Notes: generated by a model not told the origin, from the sequence alone. Positions 15,042 to 56,606 are shown, numbered from the stretch's first letter. The stretch is 64,000 nt of DNA from an uncultured Acidimicrobiaceae bacterium (GCA_963761425.1 CAVXGQ010000004.1:534134-598133); one strand, 5' to 3'. A program made the numbers and translations.

Positions 15042-15078
15042 TCGGTTGGCTCCGCACCCGGTCGGCCCGTACCATCGA

Positions 15079-16140: not shown

Positions 16141-19423
<3,283 letters not shown>

Positions 19424-30762: not shown

Positions 30763-30826
30763 CCCAACCGGTAGAGGCAGAGCGCTTAAAACGTTCACAG
30801 TGAGGGTTCGACTCCCTCCGTCCCCA
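30753..30826 (+). tRNA. 74-nt class I tRNA, anticodon UAA (nominally Leu), atypical
   Basis: Hand-folded cloverleaf. Perfect 7-bp acceptor stem GGGGACG/CGTCCCC. D-arm GCCC/AGGC with one C-A mismatch and GG in the loop. 5-bp anticodon stem GAGCG/CGTTC with loop CTTAAAA (U33, UAA, A37). 5-nt variable loop. T-arm GAGGG-TTCGACT-CCCTC. Discriminator A. No encoded CCA. Overlaps the last 10 nt of the esterase CDS. Confidence 0.7.
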
Positions 30827-35812: not shown

Positions 35813-36586
35813 ATGCTTGTCGCTCTCGCCGTGGGCCTGGGCCTATTCGGCCTGATCGTGGGATCTTTCCTCAACGTCGTCATCTACCGAGTGCCCCGTG
35901 ACGAATCGATCGTCGCCCCGCGCTCGCACTGTCCCGCTTGTGGGATGACGATTCGCGCCTTCGACAACATTCCTGTGGTCTCGTACCTGGTGCTCCGGGG
36001 TCGATGCCGCAGCTGCAAAGCATCGATCTCGGTGCGGTACCCCATCGTCGAGCTGTTGACTGCGGGTCTTTTTGCGGGGACTGCGGCCCATTTTGGGTTC
36101 GCCTGGTCGCTGCCGGCCTATGTGGTCTTGGCCGCAGGCCTGCTGACGCTGGCGTCGATCGACCTCGCGGAGAACATTCTGCCGAAAAGGATCGTGTACT
36201 TCGTCACGGTCATCGTCGGCGTGCTCCTCGTTCTCGCCTCGGCAGAGACGGGAGACTGGCACCGACTCGTCATCGGCGTCTGCAGCGCGGCCGCTTGGTT
36301 CGGTTTGTTCTTCGCGATCAATGCTGTAGGTCCGCGATGGCTTGGTTTTGGCGACGTCCGCCTCGTCGGCGTGCTCGGACTCTCGTTGGGCTGGCTCGGT
36401 GTCGGCTATGTCCTTCTGGGTCTTTATTTTGCTGCACTCATCGGTGCGGCGGTTGGCATCGGGTTGATCGTGGCGAAGCGCGGCGGTCTCGCCACGCCGG
36501 TTCCCTTCGGGCCGTTCCTCGCGCTCGGCGCTGAAATTGCCATCTTCGCCGGCTCATCGTTGCTTCGCCCCTTCCACGGCCTTTGA
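35813..36586 (+). CDS. pilD: prepilin peptidase / N-methyltransferase (A24 family)
   Basis: GSFLNVVIYRVP, then the Cys pairs CPACG...CRSC of the N-terminal methyltransferase domain, then A24 peptidase helices with GFGDV and GPFLALGA. Confidence 0.9.
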   Translation: MLVALAVGLGLFGLIVGSFLNVVIYRVPRDESIVAPRSHCPACGMTIRAFDNIPVVSYLVLRGRCRSCKASISVRYPIVELLTAGLFAGTAAHFGFAWSLPAYVVLAAGLLTLASIDLAENILPKRIVYFVTVIVGVLLVLASAETGDWHRLVIGVCSAAAWFGLFFAINAVGPRWLGFGDVRLVGVLGLSLGWLGVGYVLLGLYFAALIGAAVGIGLIVAKRGGLATPVPFGPFLALGAEIAIFAGSSLLRPFHGL

Positions 36587-37398
36587 GGCTGGTCCACGGC
36601 GCGTCGCACGACCCGAGGTCCCAGGAGGGTCGGGGTCGCCGGCGGGATAGTCGGGACCGTGCGGTTCCGAATTGCCGGTTTCTTTCCCATTGGTGGTACC
36701 GGGAGAGATAACCACCGGGCTCGGGTCCAGTCGCAGATCTTCGCTTCACTGGTCCTGACAGCTCCGTCCCGCCGGGAGGGTCGGTTGTGACGATGACTGG
36801 CGCGAGGCGTTGACAATTTGAGTAAAAAGCGAAGGAGCGGGTCGGGCCACCATCGACCGATGATGGCAGTGAGTTCTGCCATCTCACCCAATCCATTCGA
36901 CGAGCCATGCGGAGTACACGCCTGAAACTCTCCCACGCGGAGGGCACAACCGCATTGCAAGCTGGACTGACGAAGCAATTTGAGGCGAGGGACCCTCCAA
37001 CGCAGCAGCCCTGGCCAAGGGCGAACCACCGACCTGGTGAGTTTGGGGACTCACGAGACGTGAGCTGGGCGATCCCGCCGATGCATTCAGACGATGGGGG
37101 GAGCTCGTATTGGCCACGGGTCGATCCCAACTCTTTGCCAGGGGCGTGACACATTCGGGCGTACGGAGAGGCGGGAGGGTGGGGTAGCATTGCGTGGTGT
37201 TTGGGTGGGAACGCTGGACCTGCGAGTCGGAATGACTGCCGCGCTCCACGAAGGCGAGCCCGATGCCGTCATGCGGCAACTCGCGGGCGTCGGTGGATTG
37301 GCGGACGTCAGCTACATATTCAGAGGCTTTAATGGGAGTCTTATCGTGGTGGCTCTCGGGTCGGGCGCTGGTCGTGCTTGCGGACTGGTGAAGTTGCC

Positions 37399-38838
37399 AT
37401 GAGGCGACGAATAATTCGAGCGTTGATCCCGGCCGAATGGCGCTCCCACACGGGCAATGCCCGCTCGAATGACGAGCATGGATTTACTCTGGTCGAACTG
37501 CTCATCGTCTGCGTGGTCACCCCGATCATCATCGGTGGGCTCGCCTATGCGCTCATCGAACTCCTTTCGCTCTCGCAAGGGACTCAAAACAGGATCTCGG
37601 ACGCGGCCGATGCTCAGACCGTTTCGAGCTACTACGAAAAAGACGTTCTGAGCGCTGAACAGCTCACCACGAGTTCCTCACCACTGGTTCCACTGAGTTC
37701 CCCCGGCGCCCAGTGCGGAACCGGGACGCAGTTGCTCGGACTGGAGTGGAACCTCAATCCGCAGACCGGCCAATACCAGACCGTCGTTTCATATGTGTTG
37801 GAAGGCACCACATTGGTGCGCCGGTATTGCACTTCCGGAGACGTGTCAAACCCGACGAGCAGTACCACCGTCTCCACTGATGTCTCCTCCAGCCAGCAGC
37901 CGCCGACAGTCTCTTTCGTGTCCGGTTATGCGGGCAGCCCTTCGACCGTGTGGTCGACGACGGTGGGCGTGACGGACGTCAAGTTCCCTATCACCGAGCC
38001 GGCAAGCCAGTTTTCGTACAGTCTGGACGCTGTCCCATCGGCGGGTTCGTCGTCGGGATCGCTCTCGGGAGTGGGTACCCCCTCGTCGCTGACAGGATGT
38101 GGCTTCGCGACGCCGGATACCGGTACGTACGCCTCGACGCTTTGTTTCGTGGATTTCAGCAACTTCAACTACTCCCTGTACAACCAAAATCCGAATCCGG
38201 CCAATTCTCCGTTGGCGACAGCGCCCACGAACTGCGAGCAGATGTCAGCAGATGTAGCGGACACGCCCTATGTGCTTTCGTTCTGTTTCAGCACGACGTC
38301 ATCTGGCACGGCGACACCAGGAATGCCCGGATACCCCGGCCCCGGTGCAGTCATCCCCTACATGATCCCCACCTATTTCAACCCCGGGGTGAGCGAGTCG
38401 TACATGGGAAATAACGGCGTCTACACGGGCATCCCAGGTGATCCCGCCCTCTACCAGAATTCCGAGGGTGCCACCTCTTACGTCTACTTTTCGAACATCA
38501 AGCTTCTGGACTCGAACGGCAACGCTGCGACGAACTGGGAGCTCGTGACCGGGGACGCGGAGTCCACTGACACCAGTGAGTCGATCACCTGGACATCCAA
38601 CAAACCGCTGTATCTGGTGCCCGACAGTCCGACGTCCCCCTACGGAAACGCCTGTGCTGGATCTTCATCCCCGGCCGGCTTGACGGGTCTCGGCACGGAG
38701 ACCGTCACCTGCGGGGCATCGGTAAGTTCGGACAAGACCGGCACCGTGATTCTCGAGGCCCTGGCTCCGACGACGCTCACCGTCAAGATGGTGGGGGAGG
38801 GTCTCGAGGCGATCTTCGTGGGTGTACTCCTGCCATGA
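37399..38838 (+). CDS. large pilin-like protein (prepilin N-terminus, GspJ/PilW-like core, unknown C-terminal domain)
   Basis: The leader ends ...NDEHG followed by FTLVELLIVCVVTPIIIGGLAYAL (Gly-1, Phe+1, Glu+5). Then QLLGLEWNL...VVSYVLEGTTLVRRYC resembles minor pseudopilins. About 280 further Ser/Thr/Gly/Pro-rich residues are unassigned. Confidence 0.75.
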   Translation: MRRRIIRALIPAEWRSHTGNARSNDEHGFTLVELLIVCVVTPIIIGGLAYALIELLSLSQGTQNRISDAADAQTVSSYYEKDVLSAEQLTTSSSPLVPLSSPGAQCGTGTQLLGLEWNLNPQTGQYQTVVSYVLEGTTLVRRYCTSGDVSNPTSSTTVSTDVSSSQQPPTVSFVSGYAGSPSTVWSTTVGVTDVKFPITEPASQFSYSLDAVPSAGSSSGSLSGVGTPSSLTGCGFATPDTGTYASTLCFVDFSNFNYSLYNQNPNPANSPLATAPTNCEQMSADVADTPYVLSFCFSTTSSGTATPGMPGYPGPGAVIPYMIPTYFNPGVSESYMGNNGVYTGIPGDPALYQNSEGATSYVYFSNIKLLDSNGNAATNWELVTGDAESTDTSESITWTSNKPLYLVPDSPTSPYGNACAGSSSPAGLTGLGTETVTCGASVSSDKTGTVILEALAPTTLTVKMVGEGLEAIFVGVLLP

Positions 38839-39008
38839 GGGCGGAGACGAAGTCCCCGACTGTGTTCGGTGTCCGTGGCTCGGCGGCGCTGGTGACGCGT
38901 GCCGCGAGGCGGCCGCTGGCGGCGCGTCGAACCGCTCCTGCGGGAGTTTTCCAGGCCGATAGTGATGCTCGGTCGGTCATCGAACCGTCGGGGTTCCTGA
39001 GCCGATGA
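38835..39008 (+). CDS. possible 57-aa coupling ORF (weak)
   Basis: Its ATG at 38835 overlaps the upstream stop (ATGA), and its stop at 39006-39008 overlaps the ATG of the giant gene (ATGA). Third-position G+C is moderately high. No motif. It is below the ORF-track size cutoff. Confidence 0.3.
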   Translation: MRAETKSPTVFGVRGSAALVTRAARRPLAARRTAPAGVFQADSDARSVIEPSGFLSR

Positions 39009-42000
39009 GACATCTTTGCCGTTGCCTGACTGCAAGAGGCTCGCTTCGAAGCGATGCTGAACAAACGCGACAGTTGGAGGTTGGCGACACGCTGATCGAG
39101 GTGCTCATTGCGCTCGTCGTGATTGGCGTGGCCGCGCTGTCCCTCCTCCTCGCCTTTTCCACGTCGCTCTGGGGCTCGTCCGACTACCGCAACGTCGCCA
39201 CCATCGACACCGTGCTGAGGACTGCCGCCGAAGAGACGACCAGCCTGCTCCAGCAGCAACCGGCCACCGCCTGGCAAGACTGCAGTGGCGCCTCCGACAT
39301 CAACAGCAGCAATCTTCTCCAACTCCCGAGCGGCTACACGGCGACAATCTCCGCCGAGTACTGGAACAGCACGCCTCCGCCACCGAGCTTCACCTCGACC
39401 TGCGTCCCCAACGCGACGCAACTCGACCTCATCACCGTGACCTATGCGGGGAAGACCTACCAGATCAGCGTCGTTGTCGACGATCCCCTGGCTCGCCCAG
39501 TGGCCCAAGCGGGTGCGTCTTACCAGCTCGTCTTCCTTTCCCAACCGAGCAGCGGTGTCAGCGCATCGGGTCTTTCGCCAACGCCGGTGGTCGCGGTCGA
39601 AGACGATAACGGCAACATCGTCACGACTGACCTGTCGACGGTCAGCCTCGCCATCACCCCGTCGACCAACCTGAGCGACGCGACGCTGTCGCCGAACTGC
39701 TCAGAGAACGAGTTCTACGGAGTGGTCACCTTCGCGAATTGCAGCATTGACAGGGCGGGAATCGGCTACACCCTCACCGCGAGCGATGGCAGTCTCGAGC
39801 CGGCTACGAGTGCTGCCTTCAACATCACACCCGGCCCAGCCAGCCAGCTCGCTTTCACGCCGACCCCGCCCGCCTCGGTCTTCGCCGGAGTCAAGTTCTC
39901 GGTCGTCGTGGCGGAGCAGGACGCCTACGGCAACACCGAGACGGGCGATTCCACCACGACGCTCACCCTTGCCGCTAGTGGCGGAGGATTTTCGTGCACG
40001 AGCCGGCTGACACAAGCAGTCACGGGCGGGGTTGCGACTTTCACCGGTTGTTCCTTCACGAGTGTGAGCACTACCGCTTACACCTTGACGGCCTCCTCCG
40101 GCACGCTGACCCCTGCGACAACTACCACCATGGTCGCGGCGAGCGCGGCCACCCAGCTCGTCTATCTCACCGGATCACAGACCTTCGTCGCGGGTACAGG
40201 GACTGCCGCTGGCTCCGGAGCGGTGATAGTTCAGCTGCAAGACGCCTATGGCAACCCGGTCAACGCTACCGCGGCCGTCGCACTCAGCTTCAGCGGGACT
40301 TCAGGAGTGACCTACATCCCGACGTTCGGGTCGACGACCGCTTGCACGTCCTCGACGTGCCGGATCCCGGCAGGTTCCTCGATCGGGACCTTCTATATGA
40401 CTGACAACGCGGCGAACGGTGCGTCAATCTCCGTCACTACGACCGCGAATGGCCTCAGCACCCCGGCGCAGTCGGAAACGGTCCTGCAGTCGAGCACCTT
40501 CAGCGGTTCGGTGGGGATCAGCTCTCAGAGTGGGGCACTGTCGCCCACCGGCACGGCGACGTACACGATCACCGTGCATAACACCGCCTCGAGCACCCGG
40601 TATATCGAGACGCTCATAAATGGCGTGCCCTCCAGTGCGACGAGCACGCTGGCGCCGACTTCGATCACGTGTGTGCAGATCGCGGGCGGCTCCAGCGCCA
40701 CATGGTCGTTGAGCGTGGTAACGAATGGGAAAACCCCGGCGGTTACCTCGAAGTTCTCGGTCGTCGCAGAAGGTTGGACCACCAGCGGCTGTTCTGGCAC
40801 GTTGGGCGAAGACACCGAGACTTCTGGGACGCTGACCATCACCCCCGGGTCCGAGCACGAGCTCGTGGTCACGACCCAGCCTGCTTCGTCGATCACCGCC
40901 GGCGGGACGGTTTCGCTAAGCGTGGCGGTCGAGGACCTATACGGCAACGTGTTGACCTCGGGCACCGGCTCGACCGACAGCATCCAGGTGGCTCTGTCCT
41001 CTGGCAGCTTCGTCGCTAGCACCACCACGGCGACCGCGTCCTCGGGCGTGGCCAGTTTCAGCGGCCTCGAGATCACCTCGACCGCCGGTTCGCCCTACAC
41101 GATCATTGTCAGTGACACGACTGACACCTCGGTCACCCCGGTGCCGACCAACTCCGTCACTGTCAACCCCGGTCCGGCGAGCCAGCTTGCCTTCACCCCG
41201 GCCACCCCCGGCCCCGGCATGGCGGGGAACCCCATCCCGAGCGTGGCGGTCTCGGCCGAGGACACCTACGGCAACGTGGCGACCTCGGCCAGCGGCTCGG
41301 TGGTCATGTCGATCGCCTCCGGCAGCCCGCAGTCCGGCTTCAACTCCGGGGCGACGACGGTCAGCCTGTCGAGCGGGGTGGCGAGCTTCACCAACCTGGT
41401 AGTCGACACCTCGGGGAGCTACACCTTTACCGCGAAGCCGAGCAGGATCAGCGGGGTGACCGCGGCGGTCAACTCCAACGCCTTCACCGTGAGCAGCTCG
41501 TCCACGGTGAACTCGTTGGCCATCACGACCATCCCGTCGGAGACCGCCGGGTCGGGCTTCACCGTCACGGCCACGGCGAAGGACGCCTTCGGCAACGTGG
41601 CGAACAACTCGGTGGACTCGGTGACCTTGAGCATCGTGTCGGGCAGCCCGCAGACGACGTTTTCCAACAACGGCTCGACCACCATGACGACGACGCTGTC
41701 CTCCGGTGTGGCCACCTTCCCGGCGGTGGCCTTCGACACCGCTGGCCCTAACTACACGCTGTCGGCTGAGGACACCTCGGCGAACGAAACGGCGCCCAAT
41801 TCCAACGCCTTCACCGTCCGCCCGGCGGCGGCCAGCCAGCTCGCCTTCACTACCCAGCCGGTGGGGGGCGTCACCGAGGGCACCAACTTCGGCACCTCGC
41901 CGGCCGTCTCGGTGGAGGACACCTACGGCAACGTGGTGACCACCGACACCGGCCACGTCACCCTGGCGACCTACTCGGGGCCGTCGGCGGCGGCCCTTAG

Positions 42001-45000
42001 CTGTTCGAACACCGGCTTCCCGACCATCTCGGCGGTGGCGGGGGTGGCCACCTTCACCAACTGCAAGATCACCGGGACGGCGGCGGCCGGGACCTACACC
42101 CTGAGCGCCAGCCGCACCGGCCTCACCCAGGCCGTCTCGGGCAACGTGGTGATCAACCCCGGTGCGGCCAGCCAGCTCGCCTTCACCCCGGCCACCCCCG
42201 GTCCGGGTGTGGCGGGGAGCGTGATCCCGAGCGTGGCGGTCTCGGCCGAGGACACCTACGGCAACGTGGCGACCTCGGCCAGCGGCTCGGTGGTCATGTC
42301 GATCGCCTCGACCGACCCGCAGACCAGCTTCACCTCCGGGACGACGACGGTCAGCCTGTCGAGCGGGGTGGCGAGCTTCACCAACCTGGTAGTCGACACC
42401 TCGGGGAGCTACACCTTTACCGCTACCCCGAGTGGGATCAGCGGGGTGACCGCGGCGGTCAACTCCAATGCCTTCACCGTCAGCGGATCGCCCACGGTGA
42501 ACTCGTTGGCCATCACGACCATCCCGTCGGAGACCGCCGGGTCGGGCTTCACCGTCACGGCCACGGCGAAGGACGCCTTCGGCAACGCGGCGCACAACTC
42601 GGTGGACTCGGTGACCTTGAGCATCGTGTCGGGCAGCCCGCAGACGACGTTTTCCAACAACGGCTCGACCACCATGACGACGACGCTGTCCTCCGGTGTG
42701 GCCACCTTCTCGGCGGTGGCCTTCGACACCGCCGGCTCCTACACGCTGTCGGCCAAGGACACCTCGGCGAGCGTGACGGCGCCCAACTCCAACGCCTTCA
42801 CCGTCCGCCCGGCGGTGGCGAGCCAGCTCGCCTTCACCACCCAGCCGGTGGGAGGCGTCACCGAGGGCACCAACTTCGGCACCTCGCCGGCCGTCTCGGT
42901 GGAGGACACCTACGGCAACGTGGTGACCACCGACACCGGCCACGTCACCCTGGCGAAGAGCACGGGGCCGGCGGCGGGGGCCCTTAGCTGTTCGAACACC
43001 GGCTTCCCGACCATCTCGGCGGTGGCGGGGGTGGCCACCTTCACCAACTGCCAGATCACCGGGACGGCGGCGGCCGGGACCTACACCCTGAGCGCCAGCC
43101 GCACTGGCCTCACCCAGGCCGTCTCGGGCAACGTGGTGATCAACCCCGGTGCGGCCAGCCAGCTCGCCTTCACCCCGGCCACCCCCGGTCCGGGTGTGGC
43201 GGGGAGCGTGATCCCGAGCGTGGCGGTCTCGGCCGAGGACACCTACGGCAACGTGGCGACCTCGGCCAGCGGCTCGGTGGTCATGTCGATCGCCTCCGGC
43301 AGCCCGCAGTCCGGCTTCAACTCCGGGGCGACGACGGTGGCCCTGGCTAGCGGGGTGGCGAGCTTCACCAACCTGGTAGTCGACACCTCGGGGAGCTACA
43401 CCTTTACCGCTACCCCGAGTGGGATCAGCGGGGTGACCGCGGCGGTCAACTCCAATGCCTTCACCGTCAGCGGATCGCCCACGGTGGCCTCGCTGGCCAT
43501 CACGACCATCCCGTCGGAGACCGCCGGGTCGGGCTTCACCGTCACGGCCACGGCGAAGGACGCCTTCGGCAACGCGGCGCACAACTCGGTGGACTCGGTG
43601 ACCTTGAGCATCGTGTCGGGCAGCCCGCAGACGACGTTTTCCAACAACGGCTCGACCACCATGACGACGACGCTGTCCTCCGGTGTGGCCACCTTCTCGG
43701 CGGTGGCCTTCGACACCGCCGGCTCCTACACGCTGTCGGCCAAGGACACCTCGGCGAGCGTGACGGCGCCCAACTCCAACGCCTTCACCGTCAGCCCGGC
43801 GGTGGCGAGCAAGCTCGCCTTCACCACCCAGCCGGTGGGAGGGGTCACCGAGGGCACCAACTTCGGCACCTCGCCGGCCGTCTCGGTGGAGGACACCTAC
43901 GGCAACGTGGTGACCACCGACACCGGCCACGTCACCCTGGCGAAGAGCACGGGGCCGGCGGCGGGGGCCCTTAGCTGTTCGAACACCGGCTTCCCGACCA
44001 TCTCGGCGGTGGCGGGGGTGGCCACCTTCACCAACTGCCAGATCACCGGGACGGCGGCGGCCGGGACCTACACCCTGAGCGCCAGCCGCACCGGCCTCAC
44101 CCAGGCCGTCTCGGGCAACGTGGTGATCAACCCCGGGGCGGCCAGCCAGCTCGCCTTCACCACCCAGCCGGTGGGAGGGGTCACCGAGGGCACCAACTTC
44201 GGCACCTCGCCGGCCGTCTCGGTGGAGGACACCTACGGCAACGTGGTGACCACCGACACCGGCCACGTCACCCTGGCGACCTACTCGGGGCCGTCGGCGG
44301 GGGCCCTTAGCTGTTCGAACACCGGCTTCCCGACCATCTCGGCGGTGGCGGGGGTGGCCACCTTCACCAACTGCCAGATCACCGGGACGGCGGCGGCCGG
44401 GACCTACACCCTGAGCGCCAGCCGCACCGGCCTCACCCAGGCCGTCTCGGGCAACGTGGTGATCAACCCCGGGGCGGCCAGCAAGCTCGCCTTCACCACC
44501 CAGCCGGTGGGAGGGGTCACCGAGGGCACCAACTTCGGCACCTCGCCGGCCGTCTCGGTGGAGGACACCTACGGCAACGTGGTGACCACCGACACCGGCC
44601 ACGTCACCCTGGCGAAGAGCACGGGGCCGGCGGCGGGGGCCCTTAGCTGTTCGAACACCGGCTTCCCGACCATCTCGGCGGTGGCGGGGGTGGCCACCTT
44701 CACCAACTGCCAGATCACCGGGACGGCGGCGGCCGGGACCTACACCCTGAGCGCCAGCCGCACCGGCCTCACCCAGGCCGTCTCGGGCAACGTGGTGATC
44801 AACGTCGGGGCGGCCAGCCAGCTCGCCTTCACCACCCAGCCGGTGGGAGGGGTCACCGAGGGCACCAACTTCGGCACCTCGCCGGCCGTCTCGGTGGAGG
44901 ACACCTACGGCAACGTGGTGACCACCGACACCGGCAACGTCACCCTGGCGTACTACTCGGGGCCGGCGGCGGGGGCCCTTAGCTGTTCGAACACCGGCTT

Positions 45001-46525
45001 CCCGACCATCTCGGCGGTGGCGGGGGTGGCCACCTTCACCAACTGCCAGATCACCGGGACGGCGGCGGCCGGGACCTACACCCTGAGCGCCAGCCGCACT
45101 GGCCTCACCCAGGCCGTCTCGGGCAACGTGGTGATCAACCCCGGGGCGGCCAGCAAGCTCGCCTTCACCACCCAGCCGGTGGGAGGGGTCACCGAGGGCA
45201 CCAACTTCGGCACCTCGCCGGCCGTCTCGGTGGAGGACACCTACGGCAACGTGGTGACCACCGACACCGGCCACGTCACCCTGGCGAAGAGCACGGGGCC
45301 GGCGGCGGGGGCCCTTAGCTGTTCGAACACCGGCTTCCCGACCATCTCGGCGGTGGCGGGGGTGGCCACCTTCACCAACTGCCAGATCACCGGGACGGCG
45401 GCGGCCGGGACCTACACCCTGAGCGCCAGCCGCACCGGCCTCACCCAGGCCGTCTCGGGCAACGTGGTGATCAACCCCGGGGCGGCCAGCCAGCTCGCCT
45501 TCACCACCCAGCCGGTGGGAGGGGTCACCGAGGGCACCAACTTCGGCACCTCGCCGGCCGTCTCGGTGGAGGACACCTACGGCAACGTGGTGACCACCGA
45601 CACCGGCCACGTCACCCTGGCGACCTACTCGGGGCCGTCGGCGGGGGCCCTTAGCTGTTCGAACACCGGCTTCCCGACCATCTCGGCGGTGGCGGGGGTG
45701 GCCACCTTCACCAACTGCCAGATCACCGGGACGGCGGCGGCCGGGACCTACACCCTGAGCGCCAGCCGCACCGGCCTCACCCAGGCCGTCTCGGGCAACG
45801 TGGTGATCAACCCCGGTGCGGCCAGCCAGCTCGCCTTCACCCAGTCGCCGGCGAACACGGGTGTTGGTGTGGCGTTCGCCACTCAACCCGCAGTGGCGGT
45901 GGAGGACAGCTACGGCAACGTGGTGACGACGAACACGTCAACGGTGACTCTCGCCATCACGGCGGGCACGCCCACTTCGGGTGGCCCAGGGACGCTGACG
46001 TGCACGGGCGGTCTGAGCAAGGGGGCGTCCGCTGGCATCGCCACCTTCGCGGGATGTTCGATCAGCACCGAGGGCGCTAATTACGAACTCCATGCCACGG
46101 ACGGGTCCCTGGTGGCTGCCAACAGCAGTGCCTTTAACGTGTTCAGCTCGGGCACGTACTCGGGGAGCAGCGGCACAAGCGATATTCCCAGTTCCGCCAC
46201 GTATTACGGGATCAACGCCTCTTCCGCCGGGTCGGGTACTTCCACGAACAACACCATCACGCCGGGTGTGGGCGAGACCCTGACCGGCCTGACGTTCACC
46301 ATCAATCGCACCAGCACGACGAGCCACACGGCCACGGTGGGGATCGTTACGAGCGGGGTCTGGGCTGCGACGGCGCTCACGTGCACTATTACCGGGGGTT
46401 CAGGCTTGACGAGCTGCACGATCACCGCCAACGTGAGCGTCTCGGCGACGCAGTCGATCAACATTCAAGCCGTAGGAAACGGGACCCGCACCGGAACGTG
46501 GACGACGACCTACACACAGCCGTAG
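39005..46525 (+). CDS. giant pilin-like surface protein: prepilin-type N-terminus + about 19 Ig-like domains + unique C-terminal domain (2,506 aa)
   Basis: N-terminus ...QLEVG DTLIEVLIALVVIGVAALSLLLAF (Gly-1, Glu+5, hydrophobic helix). An alternative TTG start at 39074 would give a 4-aa leader. There are 19 copies of the domain pattern [QKE]L[AV][FV]...P.V.V.D.[YFN]GN...G[VI]A[TS]F...Y.L[ST]A. No LPXTG motif. Confidence 0.85.
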   Translation: MRHLCRCLTARGSLRSDAEQTRQLEVGDTLIEVLIALVVIGVAALSLLLAFSTSLWGSSDYRNVATIDTVLRTAAEETTSLLQQQPATAWQDCSGASDINSSNLLQLPSGYTATISAEYWNSTPPPPSFTSTCVPNATQLDLITVTYAGKTYQISVVVDDPLARPVAQAGASYQLVFLSQPSSGVSASGLSPTPVVAVEDDNGNIVTTDLSTVSLAITPSTNLSDATLSPNCSENEFYGVVTFANCSIDRAGIGYTLTASDGSLEPATSAAFNITPGPASQLAFTPTPPASVFAGVKFSVVVAEQDAYGNTETGDSTTTLTLAASGGGFSCTSRLTQAVTGGVATFTGCSFTSVSTTAYTLTASSGTLTPATTTTMVAASAATQLVYLTGSQTFVAGTGTAAGSGAVIVQLQDAYGNPVNATAAVALSFSGTSGVTYIPTFGSTTACTSSTCRIPAGSSIGTFYMTDNAANGASISVTTTANGLSTPAQSETVLQSSTFSGSVGISSQSGALSPTGTATYTITVHNTASSTRYIETLINGVPSSATSTLAPTSITCVQIAGGSSATWSLSVVTNGKTPAVTSKFSVVAEGWTTSGCSGTLGEDTETSGTLTITPGSEHELVVTTQPASSITAGGTVSLSVAVEDLYGNVLTSGTGSTDSIQVALSSGSFVASTTTATASSGVASFSGLEITSTAGSPYTIIVSDTTDTSVTPVPTNSVTVNPGPASQLAFTPATPGPGMAGNPIPSVAVSAEDTYGNVATSASGSVVMSIASGSPQSGFNSGATTVSLSSGVASFTNLVVDTSGSYTFTAKPSRISGVTAAVNSNAFTVSSSSTVNSLAITTIPSETAGSGFTVTATAKDAFGNVANNSVDSVTLSIVSGSPQTTFSNNGSTTMTTTLSSGVATFPAVAFDTAGPNYTLSAEDTSANETAPNSNAFTVRPAAASQLAFTTQPVGGVTEGTNFGTSPAVSVEDTYGNVVTTDTGHVTLATYSGPSAAALSCSNTGFPTISAVAGVATFTNCKITGTAAAGTYTLSASRTGLTQAVSGNVVINPGAASQLAFTPATPGPGVAGSVIPSVAVSAEDTYGNVATSASGSVVMSIASTDPQTSFTSGTTTVSLSSGVASFTNLVVDTSGSYTFTATPSGISGVTAAVNSNAFTVSGSPTVNSLAITTIPSETAGSGFTVTATAKDAFGNAAHNSVDSVTLSIVSGSPQTTFSNNGSTTMTTTLSSGVATFSAVAFDTAGSYTLSAKDTSASVTAPNSNAFTVRPAVASQLAFTTQPVGGVTEGTNFGTSPAVSVEDTYGNVVTTDTGHVTLAKSTGPAAGALSCSNTGFPTISAVAGVATFTNCQITGTAAAGTYTLSASRTGLTQAVSGNVVINPGAASQLAFTPATPGPGVAGSVIPSVAVSAEDTYGNVATSASGSVVMSIASGSPQSGFNSGATTVALASGVASFTNLVVDTSGSYTFTATPSGISGVTAAVNSNAFTVSGSPTVASLAITTIPSETAGSGFTVTATAKDAFGNAAHNSVDSVTLSIVSGSPQTTFSNNGSTTMTTTLSSGVATFSAVAFDTAGSYTLSAKDTSASVTAPNSNAFTVSPAVASKLAFTTQPVGGVTEGTNFGTSPAVSVEDTYGNVVTTDTGHVTLAKSTGPAAGALSCSNTGFPTISAVAGVATFTNCQITGTAAAGTYTLSASRTGLTQAVSGNVVINPGAASQLAFTTQPVGGVTEGTNFGTSPAVSVEDTYGNVVTTDTGHVTLATYSGPSAGALSCSNTGFPTISAVAGVATFTNCQITGTAAAGTYTLSASRTGLTQAVSGNVVINPGAASKLAFTTQPVGGVTEGTNFGTSPAVSVEDTYGNVVTTDTGHVTLAKSTGPAAGALSCSNTGFPTISAVAGVATFTNCQITGTAAAGTYTLSASRTGLTQAVSGNVVINVGAASQLAFTTQPVGGVTEGTNFGTSPAVSVEDTYGNVVTTDTGNVTLAYYSGPAAGALSCSNTGFPTISAVAGVATFTNCQITGTAAAGTYTLSASRTGLTQAVSGNVVINPGAASKLAFTTQPVGGVTEGTNFGTSPAVSVEDTYGNVVTTDTGHVTLAKSTGPAAGALSCSNTGFPTISAVAGVATFTNCQITGTAAAGTYTLSASRTGLTQAVSGNVVINPGAASQLAFTTQPVGGVTEGTNFGTSPAVSVEDTYGNVVTTDTGHVTLATYSGPSAGALSCSNTGFPTISAVAGVATFTNCQITGTAAAGTYTLSASRTGLTQAVSGNVVINPGAASQLAFTQSPANTGVGVAFATQPAVAVEDSYGNVVTTNTSTVTLAITAGTPTSGGPGTLTCTGGLSKGASAGIATFAGCSISTEGANYELHATDGSLVAANSSAFNVFSSGTYSGSSGTSDIPSSATYYGINASSAGSGTSTNNTITPGVGETLTGLTFTINRTSTTSHTATVGIVTSGVWAATALTCTITGGSGLTSCTITANVSVSATQSINIQAVGNGTRTGTWTTTYTQP
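41182..45825 (+). repeat. in-frame near-identical tandem array: three ~990-nt three-domain units followed by five 336-nt single-domain units
   Basis: The landmark CCAGCT(C/T)GCCTTCACC recurs at 41182, 42172, 43159 and 44146 (periods 990, 987, 987). Within 44138-45818 the repeat start recurs every 336 nt (44138, 44474, 44810, 45146, 45482, 45818). Copies differ at only a few positions by eye. Confidence 0.9.
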
Positions 46526-46604: not shown

Positions 46605-48221
46605 TTGGTGACGGAGAGTCCAAGAACAGGGTTCCACATCGCTGGACTTCGCACGGGACGCGCAGTTCGGCCCGGACGCGGTGGAGAACACGACGAACCG
46701 GGTGCGATCCTGGTTCTGGCGCTTGTCTTCCTGCTGGTGGGAACCGTTGTTGTCGGTGCGCTGGTGAGCGCGCTGACGAATGACCTCAACAACTCGAACA
46801 CCTTCCAGTCGGTCCGGTCTCTCCAGTACGCGGCCCGGAGCGCGACCGATTTCGCGATCCAGAGCATCCGCTACACCCCGTTGCTGTCGACGTCCCAGAC
46901 ACTGAACGCCAGCCCGCCGAACTACTGCTGGGGGAGCGGTCCGGTCTCCACGTTCCAGACGATTGACGGCGTATCTGGGATGACGGTGTGGTGCAGCACG
47001 GTTTGGAACCCGACGAGTGCTGAGACCCGGGTCGTGACCTTCTCGACCTGCCTACTGCCCAGCAACCTGGCGAGCTACCAGGACGCTGCCGCTCAGTGCG
47101 AGCAGAATCCGTTCCTCCAGGCTGTGGTCACCTTTGATGACTACCCTCCGGGCATCAGCGCGCCGACGACCGCGGAGTGCGTGGTGTACTGCGGCGCGAG
47201 CATGGCCGTGAACAGCTGGGTGTGGTCGCCGGTGGTCCCGATCGTCACGGGGATCAGCCCCGGTTCTGGTCCGATCACCGGTAGCACGCCTAGCACGCCG
47301 TTGACCATCACCATCACGGGGACTGGGTTTGTGGCCGGAGCCGCCGTCAACTTTATCGAGGAATCTGGCGGTGTCCCGGCCAGCGACAACGTGGTGTTGT
47401 CGGTGCCTGCCGCGAACGTGACGGTGAACGGACCTGGTTCGATCGCGGTCCTCGCACCGGCGGCAACCGAGGGGTCCACTTACTACGTCACCGTGACGAC
47501 ATCGACGGGAACCAGCGCCTACAGCACCAACGACGTGTTCACGTATTCCCCTGTCGCCCCGACCGTCGCGGGGATCAGTCCTAATTCGGGATTGATCGGC
47601 GGGGGCAACGCGGTGACCATCACGGGAACCGGGTTCTTGAACGACGCGACCGTCAATTTCATCGAGGAGTCGGGCGGCTACCCGGTCTTGCCGACGGTGA
47701 GCGTTCCGGCCACCTACGTGTCGGTGACCAGTTCGACTTCTATCACCACAGTCTCGCCGCCCGTATCCGCCACGGGAACCTATTTCGTCACCGTCACGAC
47801 CTCGGATGGCACCTACACGCCGACCCCGGGAACGGTCTGCCCGTCTCCGCTGCTGGCGGGCACGCAGTGTGACACCTTCTCGTATGGGACGTTGACCCCG
47901 ACCATCTCCTCCATCACTCCGCTGTCTGGCTCGGTGCATGGCGGCACGGCGGTGACGGTCACTGGGGTCGGATTCGTGTCTGGGAACACCGTCACCTTTG
48001 TTAAGTTCTCCGGCCTGGATTCGAACGGCAACCCCATCACGACCGGTTATTCAGCCAATGCGTCTTCCGTAACGGTGAACGAATCAGGCGTCACGGGCAC
48101 TTCGACGATGACCGTCGTCTCGCCGGCGGTGAGCTCTTCGGGGACGTACTACATCGACGTCACGACGTCGCAGGGCACCAGCCTCTACAGCGGTGCCCCT
48201 GATGTCTTCACTTATTCGTAG
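46605..48221 (+). CDS. pilus-associated protein: PilX_N/TadG-like N-terminal hydrophobic segment + three IPT/TIG domains
   Basis: The N-terminus ...EHDEPGAILVLALVFLLVGTVVVGALVSAL resembles PilX_N/TadG-type anchors. It carries three repeats of the pattern P.(V/I).(G/S)I(S/T)P.SG...GG..VTITGTGF......V.F.........V.V.S...I....P......TYYV.V.T..G.S.....D.F(T/S)Y, which is IPT/TIG-like. Confidence 0.7.
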   Translation: MVTESPRTGFHIAGLRTGRAVRPGRGGEHDEPGAILVLALVFLLVGTVVVGALVSALTNDLNNSNTFQSVRSLQYAARSATDFAIQSIRYTPLLSTSQTLNASPPNYCWGSGPVSTFQTIDGVSGMTVWCSTVWNPTSAETRVVTFSTCLLPSNLASYQDAAAQCEQNPFLQAVVTFDDYPPGISAPTTAECVVYCGASMAVNSWVWSPVVPIVTGISPGSGPITGSTPSTPLTITITGTGFVAGAAVNFIEESGGVPASDNVVLSVPAANVTVNGPGSIAVLAPAATEGSTYYVTVTTSTGTSAYSTNDVFTYSPVAPTVAGISPNSGLIGGGNAVTITGTGFLNDATVNFIEESGGYPVLPTVSVPATYVSVTSSTSITTVSPPVSATGTYFVTVTTSDGTYTPTPGTVCPSPLLAGTQCDTFSYGTLTPTISSITPLSGSVHGGTAVTVTGVGFVSGNTVTFVKFSGLDSNGNPITTGYSANASSVTVNESGVTGTSTMTVVSPAVSSSGTYYIDVTTSQGTSLYSGAPDVFTYS

Positions 48222-48445: not shown

Positions 48446-49519
48446 CTACGCCGCCACCGCCCGGGCGAGGTCCTTGGGATACATGGATACCTCGAGCGCG
48501 GTGTCGTAGGAGATGGTGCCGGAATTGACCAGTTCGATGAGGCTCGTCTCCAGCGTCTGCATGCCCTCGGACCGGCTCGTGGTGATCACGTTGCGGAGCT
48601 GGAAGGTCTTGCCTTCTCGAATCAGCGCCCGGCAGGCGCTGTTGGCGAGTAGCACCTCGAAGGCGGCCACCCGTCCCCCGTCGACCCGGGGCATGAGGCG
48701 CTGGGCGATCACCGCGGCGAGGGACCCGGCCAGCTGGATACGGATGAGGTCCTTGCGATCGGCGGGGAACACGTCGATGATCCGGTCGATCGCCTGGGGC
48801 GCGTCGTAGGTGTGGAGCGTGGCGAACACCAGGTGGCCGGTCTCGGCCATCGTCAAGGCGATCTGGATGGACTCCAGATCGCGCATCTCCCCGACAAGCA
48901 GGACGTCGGGGTCTTCGCGCAGGCAGGAACGAAGTCCCCGCTCGAAGCTGGGGCAGTCGACTCCCACCTCCCGTTGATTGACGATGGACCGCTTGTGGTG
49001 ATGGAGATACTCGATCGGGTCCTCGATGGTGAGCACGTGGACCGGCCGGTTGTCGTTGATGTAGTCGATGACCGAGGCGAGGCTCGTCGACTTCCCCGAT
49101 CCGGTCGGCCCCGTCACCAGGATGAAACCACGAGGGAGGTTGGCGAGCGAACTGGCCACCGCCGGCAGCAGGAGCTCCTCGAAGCTCGGAATCCGCATCG
49201 GGATCATGCGGAGCTCGAGGGCGGGGCTCCCCCGTTGGTGGAAGGCGTTGCCGCGGATTCGGGCGACGTCGTTCCAGGAGAAGGCGAAGTCGTAGTCCTG
49301 GCGTTCCTCGAAGGACTCGTGCTGTTCGGGAAGCAGGAGCGAGCGGATGACCTGGCCGATCTGATCCGGCGTCAAGTTCGGCACCCCGTCGATCGGGACG
49401 AGTAAGCCGTCCAGACGGACCCGGGGGGCCGAACCCGCGGACAACAGGAGGTCGGAGCCTTTGCGGTCCCAGAGAAGCTGCAGCCAGGGATCGATCGGAG
49501 TGGTGTCGATATTTGCCAT
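48446..49519 (-). CDS. pilT: type IV pilus retraction ATPase
   Basis: 357 aa. Walker A GPTGSGKST, TIEDPIEYLH, REDPDVLLVGEMRD and GHLVFATLHT. The size and absence of a long N-terminal domain fit PilT rather than PilB. Confidence 0.92.
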   Translation of the reverse strand: MANIDTTPIDPWLQLLWDRKGSDLLLSAGSAPRVRLDGLLVPIDGVPNLTPDQIGQVIRSLLLPEQHESFEERQDYDFAFSWNDVARIRGNAFHQRGSPALELRMIPMRIPSFEELLLPAVASSLANLPRGFILVTGPTGSGKSTSLASVIDYINDNRPVHVLTIEDPIEYLHHHKRSIVNQREVGVDCPSFERGLRSCLREDPDVLLVGEMRDLESIQIALTMAETGHLVFATLHTYDAPQAIDRIIDVFPADRKDLIRIQLAGSLAAVIAQRLMPRVDGGRVAAFEVLLANSACRALIREGKTFQLRNVITTSRSEGMQTLETSLIELVNSGTISYDTALEVSMYPKDLARAVAA

Positions 49520-49623: not shown

Positions 49624-50142
49624 TTAGGTGACCGTGTTGCAGACGTCCGCGCCGGCAGTAACGCTGGTGTCGTAGTTGGTCCAAGTAGCCGGGGTTGCGG
49701 CCCCCGCGTCGGTATGGGCAGTGCTCACCCAGACCTGGCCCGGCGACACGCCAGCCACGTCCACGCCCGCCGTGACGCCGGCAGAGGTCTCGTAGCGGAC
49801 ACCGGTCTCGCCGCTAATCACGATACCGATGTAGTAGTGGGTGCTGTTACTCGGCCAGGAGCGCAAGGCCTTAGTGGTCCCGACGAGATCCGCGATCGAT
49901 CCCGGAAAGGCGCCGCCAGAGTTGGTGGCCTGGTAGGCCGCGATTCCGACCTCGACGGTCTTCGCGTCCGTGTTGCACGCCGACTTGGCGCTGGAGCTGG
50001 TGACGCCGCCGAGCGCGAAGACGACGACGGCGGCGAGGATGCCCATGATGATGATGACGATGAGGAGTTCGATCAGGGTGAAGCCTTCCTGACCGGACCG
50101 CTCGATGCCTGTTCTACGCATGGTGCGGTAACGACTGAACAT
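49624..50142 (-). CDS. pilA: type IV major pilin
   Basis: The leader ends ...GQEG followed by FTLIELLIVIIIMGILAAVVVFAL (canonical class III signal, Glu+5). 172 aa with two Cys residues. AAAGGAA lies 9 nt upstream of the ATG. Confidence 0.88.
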   Translation of the reverse strand: MFSRYRTMRRTGIERSGQEGFTLIELLIVIIIMGILAAVVVFALGGVTSSSAKSACNTDAKTVEVGIAAYQATNSGGAFPGSIADLVGTTKALRSWPSNSTHYYIGIVISGETGVRYETSAGVTAGVDVAGVSPGQVWVSTAHTDAGAATPATWTNYDTSVTAGADVCNTVT

Positions 50143-50564: not shown

Positions 50565-51773
50565 TTAGGTGATCTTTACCTGGCGGTAGATGCCGTACAT
50601 GGCGGAGATGAGCGCGATCGCGACGAAACCGACGATGAGCCCCATGACGATGATGATGGCGGGCTCGAAGTAACCGGTGAACCGCTTGAGCTTGTAGTCG
50701 AGCTCCCTCGCGTAGTACTTGGCCGCGGTGTCCAGCTGCTCTTCGAGGGTCCCGGTCTCCTCGCCGACGCGCATCATCTGGCGAGCCGCGCTCGGGAACA
50801 GGTCGCTCGTCGCGACGGGATCGGCGAGGCCACGGCCTTCGAGCATCTCGTCCCGGATGCCGTCGATTCCCTTCTTGTAGACGTCATTCGACACCGAGTC
50901 GGAGGTCACGATCAGCGCCTCGGGGAGCGAGACACCGGCCTGGATCATCGACGAGAGGATCCGACAGATCCGCTCGATCATGACGTGCTGGACGAGGTCC
51001 CCGGCGATGGGGAGGCGGAGGACCCATGAATCGATCACCGCCCGTCCTTTTTTGGAGCGCCAGGCGATCATGAAGACGATGACCAGGAAGACGATCACCC
51101 CGAGGATGATGTCCCACCGGGCCTCGAAGAAGTTGGTGAACCGGATCAGGAGCATCGTGGGGAGGGGGAGCTTGGCGCCGAGCGACGCGAAGAAGGTCTT
51201 GAACCTCGGCATGACGAACACCCCGAGCACGACGACCACGACGACCGACATGCAGAGCACGATCCCCGGATAGATCATCGCCCCGGTGACCTTGCTGCGC
51301 GCGTCGGCGTCCCGTTCCATGTAGTCGGAGAGCTGGCCGAGAACGACGTCCAGGTTTCCTGCCAGCTCGGCCGCGCTGAGCATCCCGATGTAGTAGGGAG
51401 GAAAGGCCTCGGGGTGGGCCTCGGCGGCGAGCGAGAGGGTGTCGCCGGCCGCGATGGCCTCGATCATCGAACGCAGCGCCTTTTTGAACAGCTTGTCGGT
51501 CGTCTCTCCCTCGATGATCTCCAGGGCGTCGAGGATCGGGATTCCCGCCTTCACGAAAACTCCGAGCTGGCGCGAGAAGTGCATGACCACCTGACGCGGG
51601 ACCTTTCTCTTGGTCACCTCGTACTGGAGGATGCTCGTCTTCTCTTCAATGGAGAGCGGCTCGAGCTCCCGGCTCAGCATCAACAGGTGGGCGGCACCCG
51701 CGTTGGGGGACGCGATCACCCCCGAGACTTCCCTGCCGCTCTTGTCGATTGCGGTGTAGCTGAATCGGGCCAT
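50565..51773 (-). CDS. pilC: type IV pilus platform protein (GspF/PilC family)
   Basis: 402 aa with two T2SSF repeats (FSRQLGVFVKAGIPILDAL ... ICRILSSMIQAGVSLPEAL) and three TM segments. AGGA lies upstream of the ATG, 12 nt after the pilB stop. Confidence 0.92.
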   Translation of the reverse strand: MARFSYTAIDKSGREVSGVIASPNAGAAHLLMLSRELEPLSIEEKTSILQYEVTKRKVPRQVVMHFSRQLGVFVKAGIPILDALEIIEGETTDKLFKKALRSMIEAIAAGDTLSLAAEAHPEAFPPYYIGMLSAAELAGNLDVVLGQLSDYMERDADARSKVTGAMIYPGIVLCMSVVVVVVLGVFVMPRFKTFFASLGAKLPLPTMLLIRFTNFFEARWDIILGVIVFLVIVFMIAWRSKKGRAVIDSWVLRLPIAGDLVQHVMIERICRILSSMIQAGVSLPEALIVTSDSVSNDVYKKGIDGIRDEMLEGRGLADPVATSDLFPSAARQMMRVGEETGTLEEQLDTAAKYYARELDYKLKRFTGYFEPAIIIVMGLIVGFVAIALISAMYGIYRQVKIT

Positions 51774-55730: not shown

Positions 55731-55814
55731 GTCCTTCGTCCCCCCAGTGACCGAGCACTCACCAGTCTTACCGGTGCACCTGCTTGGCGGGGCGCGCCCC
55801 AGATCGACGAGGCG

Positions 55815-56579
55815 TTAGAGGTCGCGCACCGATGCGGCCGGGCCGATGATGACGAGGGGGTGGCGGGCTGGGCGCAACCATCGAAGCGTGCGGACGAGCT
55901 CGGGCTCGTCGAGGCTAACGCAACCGTCGGTCGCGCTTGTTGTGGAGACGTGGAGAAAGATCGCCGAGCCTCGCCCCGGCACGATGGGAGCGGTGTTGTA
56001 CTCGATCACGGCGAAGTAGTCGTAGGCCGGGATCTCGGTCCACAACGCTTCGCTGTCGCCTCCGAACGGGGGCCGTTGCCCGCAGGGGACGTGGACGAAG
56101 CGGTTGTAGGCGGGCGTCGTCGGGTCCTCGTCCCACCAGTCGCCGCACGTGAGTTGGTGGTAGCGGTAGACGACGCCGGGATCGGGCGCGACGCCGTACA
56201 TCACGGGCCCGACCCCGAAGGCGCCGATCGGCGTGGTGCCGTCGCCTTCGAGGTGATGGCTGGAAAGGCCGTGCCAGCCGAGCCGGGCCGGCCACGGGCC
56301 ACCGACCTCAGCAAAGCACCCCGCCCGGCGGTCCCACAGCGTCACCGTCGCCGTCGTGGAGGAGGTGGTGGGCGCCTCGACGAGTACCAGCTGGGCGGCG
56401 TTCGCCGTCGAGCGAAGGCGGTCAGCCAGATTGGCGCGGCAGGCGCCGGCGGGACGCTCGGGCGCAGCTTCGTGGACTGGCCGCGCCGGCATCGGGCTGA
56501 TCCCGAAAAGAACCGGCGTCGCGAGTGCCACCGCGGCGAACCGTGCCACGCCCCGGCCGAGCTTCGAAGTCAGCGTCAT
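55815..56579 (-). CDS. YkuD-like L,D-transpeptidase-family protein
   Basis: Signal peptide. The C-terminal GSAIFLHVSTTSATDGCVSL fits the YkuD His...Gly-Cys catalytic motif. Confidence 0.6.
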   Translation of the reverse strand: MTLTSKLGRGVARFAAVALATPVLFGISPMPARPVHEAAPERPAGACRANLADRLRSTANAAQLVLVEAPTTSSTTATVTLWDRRAGCFAEVGGPWPARLGWHGLSSHHLEGDGTTPIGAFGVGPVMYGVAPDPGVVYRYHQLTCGDWWDEDPTTPAYNRFVHVPCGQRPPFGGDSEALWTEIPAYDYFAVIEYNTAPIVPGRGSAIFLHVSTTSATDGCVSLDEPELVRTLRWLRPARHPLVIIGPAASVRDL

Positions 56580-56606
56580 CGGGCCCGCCGATCGGTCGCG
56601 GTCGGT

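Follow-up and report, generated by a model that had tools for sequence, protein, structure and literature searches.

A candidate giant modular type IV pilin with a repetitive Ig-like stalk, and its relatives in uncultured actinobacteria

A 64,000-nucleotide stretch of DNA from an uncultured Acidimicrobiaceae bacterium (GCA_963761425.1, CAVXGQ010000004.1:534134-598133; hereafter the window, with positions counted from its first letter) encodes, within a cluster of type IV pilus genes, a protein of 2,506 amino acids (aa). This protein is very probably a type IV pilus subunit in which a small pilin foot carries about 20 immunoglobulin-like (Ig-like) domains. It is one of many oversized pilins in uncultured actinobacteria of the Acidimicrobiales type, which make up a large family that has apparently not been described before. 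The reading favoured here, which is considered likely although with clear reservations, is that the giant protein is a modular type IV minor pilin, similar to GspI and PilV, that carries a stalk of variable length at the tip of the pilus.

Architecture of the giant protein

The giant gene is an open reading frame (ORF) on the plus strand (39005..46525) that starts with ATG. The G+C contents of its codon positions 1, 2 and 3 are 0.51, 0.62 and 0.90, similar to those of the adjoining pilA, pilB, pilC and pilT genes, and a run of 2,506 open codons is far beyond chance, because about 0.02 stops per random codon (an estimate) are expected in DNA with a G+C content of 68%. The coordinates and the coding frame given in a preliminary description of the same sequence therefore hold. 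A minus-strand ORF of 1,649 aa (40937-45886) was rejected as a gene, as its G+C contents of 0.95 at the first and 0.52 at the third codon position mark it as the shadow of the plus-strand frame with its G+C-rich third positions. Three minus-strand ORFs of 106 aa (at 41419, 42409 and 43396), which recur with a 987-nt unit of the array described below, are likewise shadow frames.

The N-terminus of the protein reads MRHLCRCLTARGSLRSDAEQTRQLEVG/DTLIEVLIALVVIGVAALSLLLAF, where the slash marks the predicted cleavage site. A short basic leader is thus followed by a hydrophobic stretch of 24 residues, with Gly at position -1 and Glu at position +5. The median leader length in the family is 27 aa, and the leaders of two other proteins of the same locus, PilA and a 486-aa protein, have 20 aa and about 28 aa, respectively. 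The translation agrees with the preliminary description, in which the same Gly and Glu and a hydrophobic helix of about 20 residues had been noted, as had the lack of an LPXTG motif: no LPXTG sorting signal is present in the giant protein, the C-terminus of which reads ...TWTTTYTQP, and sortase anchoring was rejected for this reason.

The in silico folding of aa 20-170 with AlphaFold, based on 25 sequences, resulted in a model with a predicted local distance difference test score (pLDDT) of 85 and a predicted template modelling score (pTM) of 0.64. It consists of a 60-residue helix (aa 24-83), an alpha-beta loop, two short helices and four antiparallel strands, which is the 'lollipop' topology of pilins, and the predicted beta-sheet packs against the C-terminal half of the long helix. 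A model of 277 aa contained the same module, to which an Ig-like beta-sandwich is joined by a linker of low confidence (aa 161-166); the first stalk domain, D1, was modelled as a beta-sandwich with a pLDDT of 80-90.

Sequence conservation is in accordance with a pilin module. The residues G-1, E5, F24, C93, Y119, W120 and C133 are invariant in the alignment (A4). Of 163 relatives, every one has E5 and L7, 162 have L3, 158 have F24 and 115 have Gly14, whereby E5 and L3 were partly fixed by the pattern with which these relatives had been selected; position 14 is the helix-breaking position of classical type IVa pilins. The residue at +1, in a count that was made without fixing it, is Asp in 135 of 138 relatives, Glu in two and Ser in one. 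The Asp at +1 had been regarded in the preliminary description as atypical, so that processing appeared doubtful, but it turned out to be a signature of the family.

Profile searches also led to pilins. When the PDB sequences were searched with the module, the top three matches were Geobacter PilA-N (E 0.011-0.09). Pfam N_methyl matches 28 of 36 family N-termini at E<=0.01 (best 5.3e-5), and the NCBIfam models gspI, gspH, PilV and ComGE match 22, 16, 10 and 6 of the same 36 N-termini. The giant protein itself has additional weak matches to GspI, PilV, ComGE and GspH, all of which are below threshold and belong to pilin families only. The searches with hidden Markov models (HMMs) that had been proposed before thus pointed to pilin families, while none of the matches of the giant protein reaches a curated cut-off.

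The pilin module is followed by 21 domains, i.e., 19 Ig-like domains, one divergent beta domain (D4) and a unique C-terminal domain (D21). D1 to D10 start at aa 174, 281, 384, 495, 619, 727, 837, 945, 1057 and 1167, and D11 to D20 start at aa 1274, 1386, 1496, 1603, 1715, 1827, 1939, 2051, 2163 and 2275. The 19 Ig-like domains have lengths of 103-112 aa and share the pattern QL[AV]F...V.V.D.[YF]GN...G[VI]A[TS]F...Y.L[ST]A, and the domain table therewith agrees with the 19 beta-rich domains with a shared motif that had been reported before. D4 is a DUF11-like beta domain of 124 aa (aa 495-618; DUF11 match with E 0.044). The unique C-terminal domain, for which a length of about 125 aa had been proposed, was found to comprise 122 aa. 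The coordinates of all segments and of the neighbouring pilus genes are summarized in Table 1.

Table 1. Features of the giant gene and of the surrounding pilus gene cluster, with positions in the window
Feature	Position	Strand	Basis and remarks
Leader peptide of the giant pilin (predicted)	39005..39085	+	27 aa, basic, Gly at the end; translation
Pilin module, aa 28-173, DTLIEVLIALVVIG...	39086..39523	+	alpha1 helix, Cys93-Cys133 pair, four-stranded sheet; AlphaFold, alignments, weak pilin-family matches
D1-D5, aa 174-726	39524..41182	+	unique, mutual identity 25-47%; D1, D2, D3 and D5 Ig-like; domain table, identity matrix
Three A-B-C super-repeats, aa 727-1714	41183..44146	+	about 987 nt each, nine Ig-like domains; DNA repeat search
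Five further C units, aa 1715-2274	44147..45826	+	336 nt each; Tandem Repeats Finder, identity matrix
D20, last Ig-like domain, aa 2275-2384	45827..46156	+	about 48% identical to the C units
D21, unique C-terminal domain, aa 2385-2506, and stop codon	46157..46525	+	one Cys pair; distal end of the stalk
pilD, prepilin peptidase/N-methyltransferase	35813..36586	+	A24_N_bact 1.6e-37, Peptidase_A24 1.9e-9; CPAC...CRSC and GFGD motifs
486-aa minor-pilin-like protein	37378..38838	+	N_methyl 20.1 bits; weak HpsC and GspH matches; HG/FTLVELLIV
538-aa PilX/GspK-like protein	46605..48221	+	TIG 8.9e-18; PilX_N weak, E 0.095
pilT, retraction ATPase	48446..49519	-	T2SSE 2.8e-46; 357 aa
pilA, candidate major pilin	49624..50142	-	172 aa; QEG/FTLIELLIV; N_methyl 31.5 and TIGR02532 30.7 bits, both above cut-off
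pilC, platform protein	50565..51773	-	T2SSF 4.1e-55
pilB, assembly ATPase	51786..53684	-	T2SSE 1.4e-124 and MshEN

The central part of the stalk is highly repetitive. The A-B-C triplets are spaced by 987-990 nt, and their copies are 92-99% identical on the DNA level and 88-99% identical on the protein level. The last C unit of the triplets (C3) and the five further C units form a tandem array of six units, in which two subtypes alternate. The 336-nt units are 97-99% identical in DNA sequence, and Tandem Repeats Finder describes the array as 6.1 copies with a period of 336 and 97% matches (43795-45841). D14 and D18 have identical protein sequences, as have D15 and D19, and in total 33 domain pairs of the giant protein are at least 90% identical. 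The longest exact repeat has 665 bp (offset 1344), and there are several others of 300-375 bp.

The domains are joined by short Pro/Gly linkers, and the cysteines occur only as intradomain pairs, including C93/C133 of the pilin module, as expected of an extracytoplasmic protein. A Pfam search with the whole giant protein revealed no match to Big_1 or Invasin_D3 at the gathering score; the best single stalk domain, of type B, reached 18.2 bits against Invasin_D3, for which the cut-off is 33. Among 36 Ig domains of the family, five match one or the other of these models at about 1e-14. D21 has counterparts (50-55% identity) right at the C-terminal end of two family members, P0168 and P0221, and is also present in five short metagenomic fragments. 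It has no Pfam match, and the homology search retrieved no informative homologue and thus no clue to its function.

The family and its genomic context

An exhaustive profile search with the pilin module alone yielded 2,676 cluster representatives at E<=1e-3, of which 183 also pass E<=1e-30; in the 150 matches listed, the module stands at the N-terminus with a single exception. Among the 144 top matches that had not been seen before, to which the length statistics refer, the median length is 591 aa, 45 proteins have at least 1,000 aa, seven have at least 2,000 aa, and the maximum is 2,684 aa. A word-indexed protein search had given no match longer than 482 aa, whereas the relatives of 1,000-2,700 aa appeared in the exhaustive profile search. 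The giant protein is therefore not a one-off, as could have been assumed from the preliminary description, but stands at the top end of a large family whose members commonly reach 1,000-2,700 aa.

The extension is variable in kind as well as in length. An HMM built from the Ig-like domains of the window found 0 to 21 copies per relative, and at least one copy in 88 of 145 relatives. Other family members carry other modules, for example four FN3-like domains at one related locus (L002), or no extension at all, as the 163-aa protein at another (L007). Two pairs of proteins with nearly identical modules have unequal lengths, i.e., 374 versus 921 aa (94% module identity) and 591 versus 890 aa (99%), but the partners may come from different species, and some of the sequences are possibly fragments. 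The source databases label the relatives as 'hypothetical', 'pseudopilin PulG' or 'trimeric autotransporter adhesin', or not at all. Where the module is clearly encoded in a named genome record (L001, L002 and L007), this record is a metagenome-assembled genome of Acidimicrobiales.

In the window, the giant gene is embedded in a type IV pilus locus. Pfam matches confirmed that pilD, with both of its domains, lies 2.4 kb upstream and that pilA, pilB, pilC and pilT lie just downstream, as had been described. The two genes that directly flank the giant gene (37378-38838 and 46605-48221) had been missed, and both encode pilin-like proteins. The upstream gene probably starts at 37399 with MRRR, and its 486-aa product has a beta-rich, Cys-containing C-terminal part of about 400 aa. 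The N-terminus of the 538-aa product of the downstream gene reads ...EPG/AILVLALVFLLVG and lacks Glu5; behind it, the protein has a Cys-rich globular region and then three TIG/IPT domains, and the orthologue at L002 matches PilX_N with E 0.0086. Thus, all three putative tip subunits (the 486-aa protein, the giant protein and the 538-aa protein) are modular, because both partners of the giant protein carry sizeable beta-rich extensions. A six-frame pattern scan of the 64 kb revealed three credible class III motifs only, all in this cluster, namely those of two of these pilins and of PilA.

The conservation of this arrangement was analyzed at seven related places (L001, L002, L007, L011, L012/L013, L014 and L015). 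A set of three genes, encoding a large N_methyl protein, a GDTLIE pilin and a PilX_N/TIG protein, is present in all seven places where the contig allows, and the order is kept except at L014. In six of these places, all but L012/L013, the DNA that was fetched also contains pilus machinery genes. The preliminary description had asked whether homologues are tied to pilus genes; they are consistently linked to pilB, pilC, pilT and pilD as well as to the same two flanking genes. Orthologues of the 486-aa protein are encoded directly upstream of the GDTLIE pilin at L001, L002, L011, L012 and L015 and have weak or faint matches to DUF7305 or CshA_NR2. Orthologues of the 538-aa protein are encoded directly downstream at L002, L007, L011, L012 and L015. 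At L014, the 538-aa orthologue is encoded about 0.7 kb downstream of the GDTLIE pilin, with small called ORFs in between, and the best match to the 486-aa protein is also found downstream, beyond pilC fragments.

The closest relative is L011, where PilB, PilC, PilT and PilD are 83%, 76%, 79% and 77% identical to those of the window. The gene order is a 460-aa protein, a 374-aa GDTLIE pilin, a 477-aa TIG protein, pilD, one further gene and pilT-pilA-pilC-pilB. The 374-aa orthologue aligns only with the pilin module, D1 and D2 of the giant protein, and thus has two Ig domains versus 20 in the window. The three pilin-like proteins are 49-54% identical between the two loci, as opposed to 76-83% for PilB, PilC, PilT and PilD, and this faster divergence than that of the machinery is the pattern expected of exposed subunits. 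The pilD gene is located upstream of the minor-pilin genes in the window and downstream of them at L011 (12858-13631), and a 594-aa multi-pass membrane protein encoded after pilD at L011 has no counterpart in the window (tblastn). Around the expanded gene, the locus has undergone rearrangement.

Large members were found on two long contigs. On the 1.31-Mb contig of L015, genes for a 394-aa protein, a 2,133-aa pilin and a 641-aa TIG protein are followed by pilB, pilC, pilA, pilT and pilD. On the 464-kb contig of L014 (ERZ25039595 contig_21307), a 2,542-aa member lies among pil gene fragments: instead of full-length pilB, pilC and adjacent genes, many short ORFs were called, which suggests either indel errors or pseudogenisation, yet the ORF of the pilin is intact. 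Two multi-domain proteins with Big_1/Invasin_D3 domains are encoded just downstream of this pilin. At L012/L013, the 5.8 kb downstream of the three-gene set (12857-18715) contain no called gene and no ORF of at least 200 aa; this region may be a ribosomal RNA operon or masked sequence.

Some further features of the window should be mentioned. The region of about 0.8 kb between pilD and the 486-aa gene (36587-37398) contains no credible ORF and has a lower G+C content of about 0.62; it yielded neither an Rfam family nor a promoter nor a convincing terminator, and it has no DNA similarity to L011. Beside pilB, the minus strand encodes a DsbD_TM/thioredoxin fusion, a YkuD L,D-transpeptidase, an M15 D-Ala-D-Ala carboxypeptidase and Lgt (54021-57982). 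The functions of these genes, disulfide handling and wall remodelling, could be of use to pilins with Cys pairs on their way through the wall, or the adjacency is coincidental. A single tRNA gene (30753-30826; Rfam 57.5 bits) lies against the end of a carboxylesterase ORF (29140-30762), with an overlap of 10 nt with this mechanically called ORF.

Tip subunit or surface fibre

In the favoured mechanism, the giant protein would be inserted into the membrane via its class III signal and cut by PilD after Gly27. The pilin module of about 145 aa would then join the pilin-like 486-aa protein and the Glu5-less, PilX/GspK-like 538-aa protein, and the resulting complex of three minor pilins would prime and cap the PilA filament, which PilB and PilC would build and PilT would retract. 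The C-terminal 2,330 residues, with a predicted number of about 20 Ig-like, disulfide-containing domains, would form a flexible stalk of about 80 nm, an estimate that assumes about 4 nm per Ig-like domain. This stalk would hold D21 far beyond the tip of the pilus and might serve as a long-reach tether or as an adhesin. Stalk length is plastic in evolution, and part of the array, with a DNA identity of 97-99%, has been amplified recently by tandem duplication. The giant protein was also considered as the major subunit of a 'bottle-brush' filament, but this was rejected, as a canonical PilA of 172 aa is present and the giant gene belongs to a set of minor-pilin genes.

Several observations weigh against a minor pilin at the tip. 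The giant protein stays below the curated cut-offs of N_methyl (PF07963; 14.1-17.8 versus 21.2 bits) and of TIGR02532 (15.5 versus 16.3 bits). It also stays below those of the I subunits, which have a small three-stranded fold (gspI, TIGR01707, 19.4 versus 44.35 bits; PilV, TIGR02523, 14.4 versus 52.2 bits) and matches them with the helix only, so that the assignment to GspI/PilV, which draws on weak matches limited to the N-terminal helix, is provisional. A Foldseek search of the PDB with the model of the pilin module, a query consisting of a lone 60-residue helix and a small sheet, gave no significant match (best E 0.09, to unrelated proteins), and the assignment of the pilin fold therefore derives from the predicted topology. 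Most solved pilin structures lack alpha1N, and the missing match is therefore not counted as a negative. The same search with the 277-aa model gave matches to Ig-like domains only, which is informative for the stalk and silent on the pilin part. To our knowledge, there is no characterised precedent for Asp at +1, so that cleavage or methylation by PilD is uncertain. Genes for PilM, PilN and PilO were not recognised among the ORFs scanned near the cluster in the window; an alignment subcomplex, if present, would be encoded elsewhere or be too divergent for detection. At L012/L013, the three-gene set lies beside the trp operon and not within 10 kb of pilB, pilC or pilT. Lastly, no ligand-binding or adhesive domain was recognised in the stalk or in D21, neither by Pfam searches with single domains nor by the homology search with D21, and we can only infer an adhesive role of the giant protein.

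Some of these observations would fit a pilin-anchored fibre on the cell surface. The protein would again be processed by PilD, but the module would be a membrane foot or part of a very short pseudopilus, as in type II secretion, and the stalk would cross the wall and decorate the cell body. The class III signal and the linkage to pil genes are in equal accordance with this alternative, and the occurrence of the three-gene set away from pilB, pilC and pilT at L012/L013 would be easier to understand. In addition, a stalk of the estimated length would be ample to cross a monoderm wall, a subunit of 250 kDa might incorporate poorly, and a known anchor is absent in about half of the predicted fibrillar adhesins (PMC9210967). 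However, the small canonical PilA and the PilT of the locus point to real, dynamic pili, and conserved J/W-like and K/X-like partners are expected of a tip-priming complex (PMC9934059). Furthermore, extension-free members such as the 163-aa protein at L007 make sense as ordinary minor pilins. A surface fibre is thus regarded as rather unlikely, and a minor pilin at the tip remains the preferred interpretation.

A different question is whether the length of the protein is real. The 336-nt and 987-nt repeats are nearly identical and could have been mis-counted during assembly, in which case the true number of Ig domains would be fewer or more than 20. Repeats with 97-99% identity and exact repeats of 665 bp and, several times, of 300-375 bp exceed the resolution of short reads, and exact look-ups found the giant protein and PilC nowhere else on record, and PilA and PilT only on one 2.5-kb Logan contig. 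This short-read contig, from run SRR28012360, is 100% identical over pilA and pilT and stops inside the 538-aa gene, near the giant gene. Nevertheless, the variants among the copies are ordered and alternate (subtypes Q/ATYSGPS and K/AKSTGPA), the frame is open throughout, and collapsing every near-identical copy still leaves ten distinct domains and about 1,250 aa. In addition, relatives with 9-21 Ig domains are encoded on the contigs of 464 kb and 1.31 Mb, and in several relatives of 2,000-2,500 aa the mutual identity of the array domains does not exceed 62-79%, so that these arrays cannot be repeat artefacts. The family thus genuinely includes proteins with long stalks, and the giant protein is an extreme of recent amplification. 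A partly artefactual length of this particular protein is considered unlikely. The suspicion of an assembly artefact, which had been raised in the preliminary description, is thereby answered in part: long arrays are real in other assemblies, but the exact copy number in the window is uncertain because of the exact repeat of 665 bp.

It is highly improbable that the giant protein is an ordinary surface protein with an uncleaved signal anchor, a superficial likeness to prepilins and a coincidental neighbourhood of pil genes: although it misses the curated pilin thresholds, has no pilin match in Foldseek and carries Asp at +1, G-1 and E5 are found in every relative with the motif and Asp+1 in nearly all, a plain anchor has no reason to contain a Glu within the helix, most family members match pilin-family HMMs, AlphaFold predicts not a bare anchor but a 60-residue alpha1 helix with a four-stranded sheet packed on its C-terminal half, and the synteny with pil genes is found in six of seven places. 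The invariant intramembrane Glu and this synteny make an unprocessed signal anchor less likely than a pilin-anchored fibre.

I-type minor pilins are thought to nucleate pilus assembly. A more far-reaching proposal, which is put forward tentatively and with about as much doubt as confidence, is that in Acidimicrobiales-type actinobacteria a core tip subunit, a minor pilin that looks like the I type, has been turned into a 'periscope' stalk of variable length with up to about 21 Ig-like domains. Proteins of this kind, with 1,000-2,700 aa and many cluster representatives, would be the largest pilins known, and the nearly invariant Asp+1 would imply a chemistry of N-terminal processing or packing that differs from that of classical N-methyl-Phe. 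In that case, the pili would bear a tip stalk of an estimated 80 nm, which would be reeled in by PilT-driven retraction.

Relation to known systems and implications

Modular pilins are widespread, as has been revealed by a survey with InterPro signatures, in which the most extreme multi-domain case had 860 residues and 12 repeats (Raynaud et al. 2021, PMC8179133). Like the modular pilins of Streptococcus sanguinis (PilB with a vWA and PilC with a lectin module) and CofB of enterotoxigenic Escherichia coli, the giant protein has a class III pilin module, a short linker and non-pilin modules, its gene is located in a pil locus, and display at the tip is expected. The combination that characterizes modular pilins, i.e., a pilin module, a linker and domains foreign to pilus biology, is thus found in the giant protein by prediction. 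However, the giant protein has about 21 extra domains, and its 2,506 aa are about three times the 860 residues of the survey extreme. Its +1 residue is Asp and not Phe or Met, and its extension is a repetitive stalk and not a single recognisable binding module. It would probably escape a signature-based survey, as its N_methyl motif and its Ig domains are below the thresholds of Pfam and NCBIfam.

The locus also resembles the tip complexes GspH-I-J-K and FimU-PilV-W-X, whose few minor pilins are likewise encoded side by side. The 538-aa protein lacks Glu5 like GspK and PilX, and the commonest weak matches of the giant module are GspI, followed by GspH and PilV. In monoderm S. sanguinis, a GspI-like PilA and the modular pilins PilB and PilC have been modelled to cap the pilus (PMC9934059), and similarly three minor pilins are combined with one major pilin in the window. 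In contrast to the known tip complexes, the putative I-like subunit, which is normally the smallest, carries the largest extension, and Ig-type or other beta-rich modules are present in each of the three partners.

The giant protein resembles periscope proteins and fibrillar adhesins such as SasG, Rib, Sgo_0707 and CdrA (PMC8201768, PMC9210967) in that its folded domains are repeated in tandem with very high DNA identity and joined by short linkers that contain Pro, its relatives differ greatly in length, and a distinct domain occupies the distal end. The polarity is reversed, as the protein is anchored by a pilin module at its N-terminus and not by an LPXTG at the C-terminus or by an outer-membrane anchor, and the C-terminus is distal. 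If the favoured model is right, the stalk is attached to a retractable filament and not to the wall, and the length differences observed here are between relatives. The stalk domains resemble the Ig-like domains of invasin and intimin (Big_1, PF02369; Invasin_D3, PF09134), which are also beta-sandwich stalk domains with the core motif V.V.D..GN, but those of the giant protein are below threshold, and their context is a pilin and not an outer-membrane beta-barrel adhesin.

Modular minor pilins as a class are thus already known. New are the scale, the repetitive stalk, the Asp+1 signature and the large family that is mostly missed by curated signatures; full-text literature searches for giant pilins retrieved no paper on pilins of such size. 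Modular pilins are the current explanation for new functions of simple type IV filaments, and the locus and the family described here suggest an overlooked class of much larger pilins of up to about 2,700 aa. They would have been overlooked because the Asp+1 prepilin motif and the stalk domains are both below curated thresholds.

As the organisms are uncultured, the importance of the family is conceptual for now. Several questions are raised: whether the pilus machine can prime on a subunit of 250 kDa, how a tip stalk of the estimated length passes the wall and behaves on retraction, and how Asp+1 affects PilD cleavage, methylation and the pairing of Glu5 with the N-terminus. The family would also offer a candidate for the missing anchor of some actinobacterial fibrillar adhesins. 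The idea behind periscope proteins, length variation via repeats with high identity, would thereby be linked to a dynamic filament.

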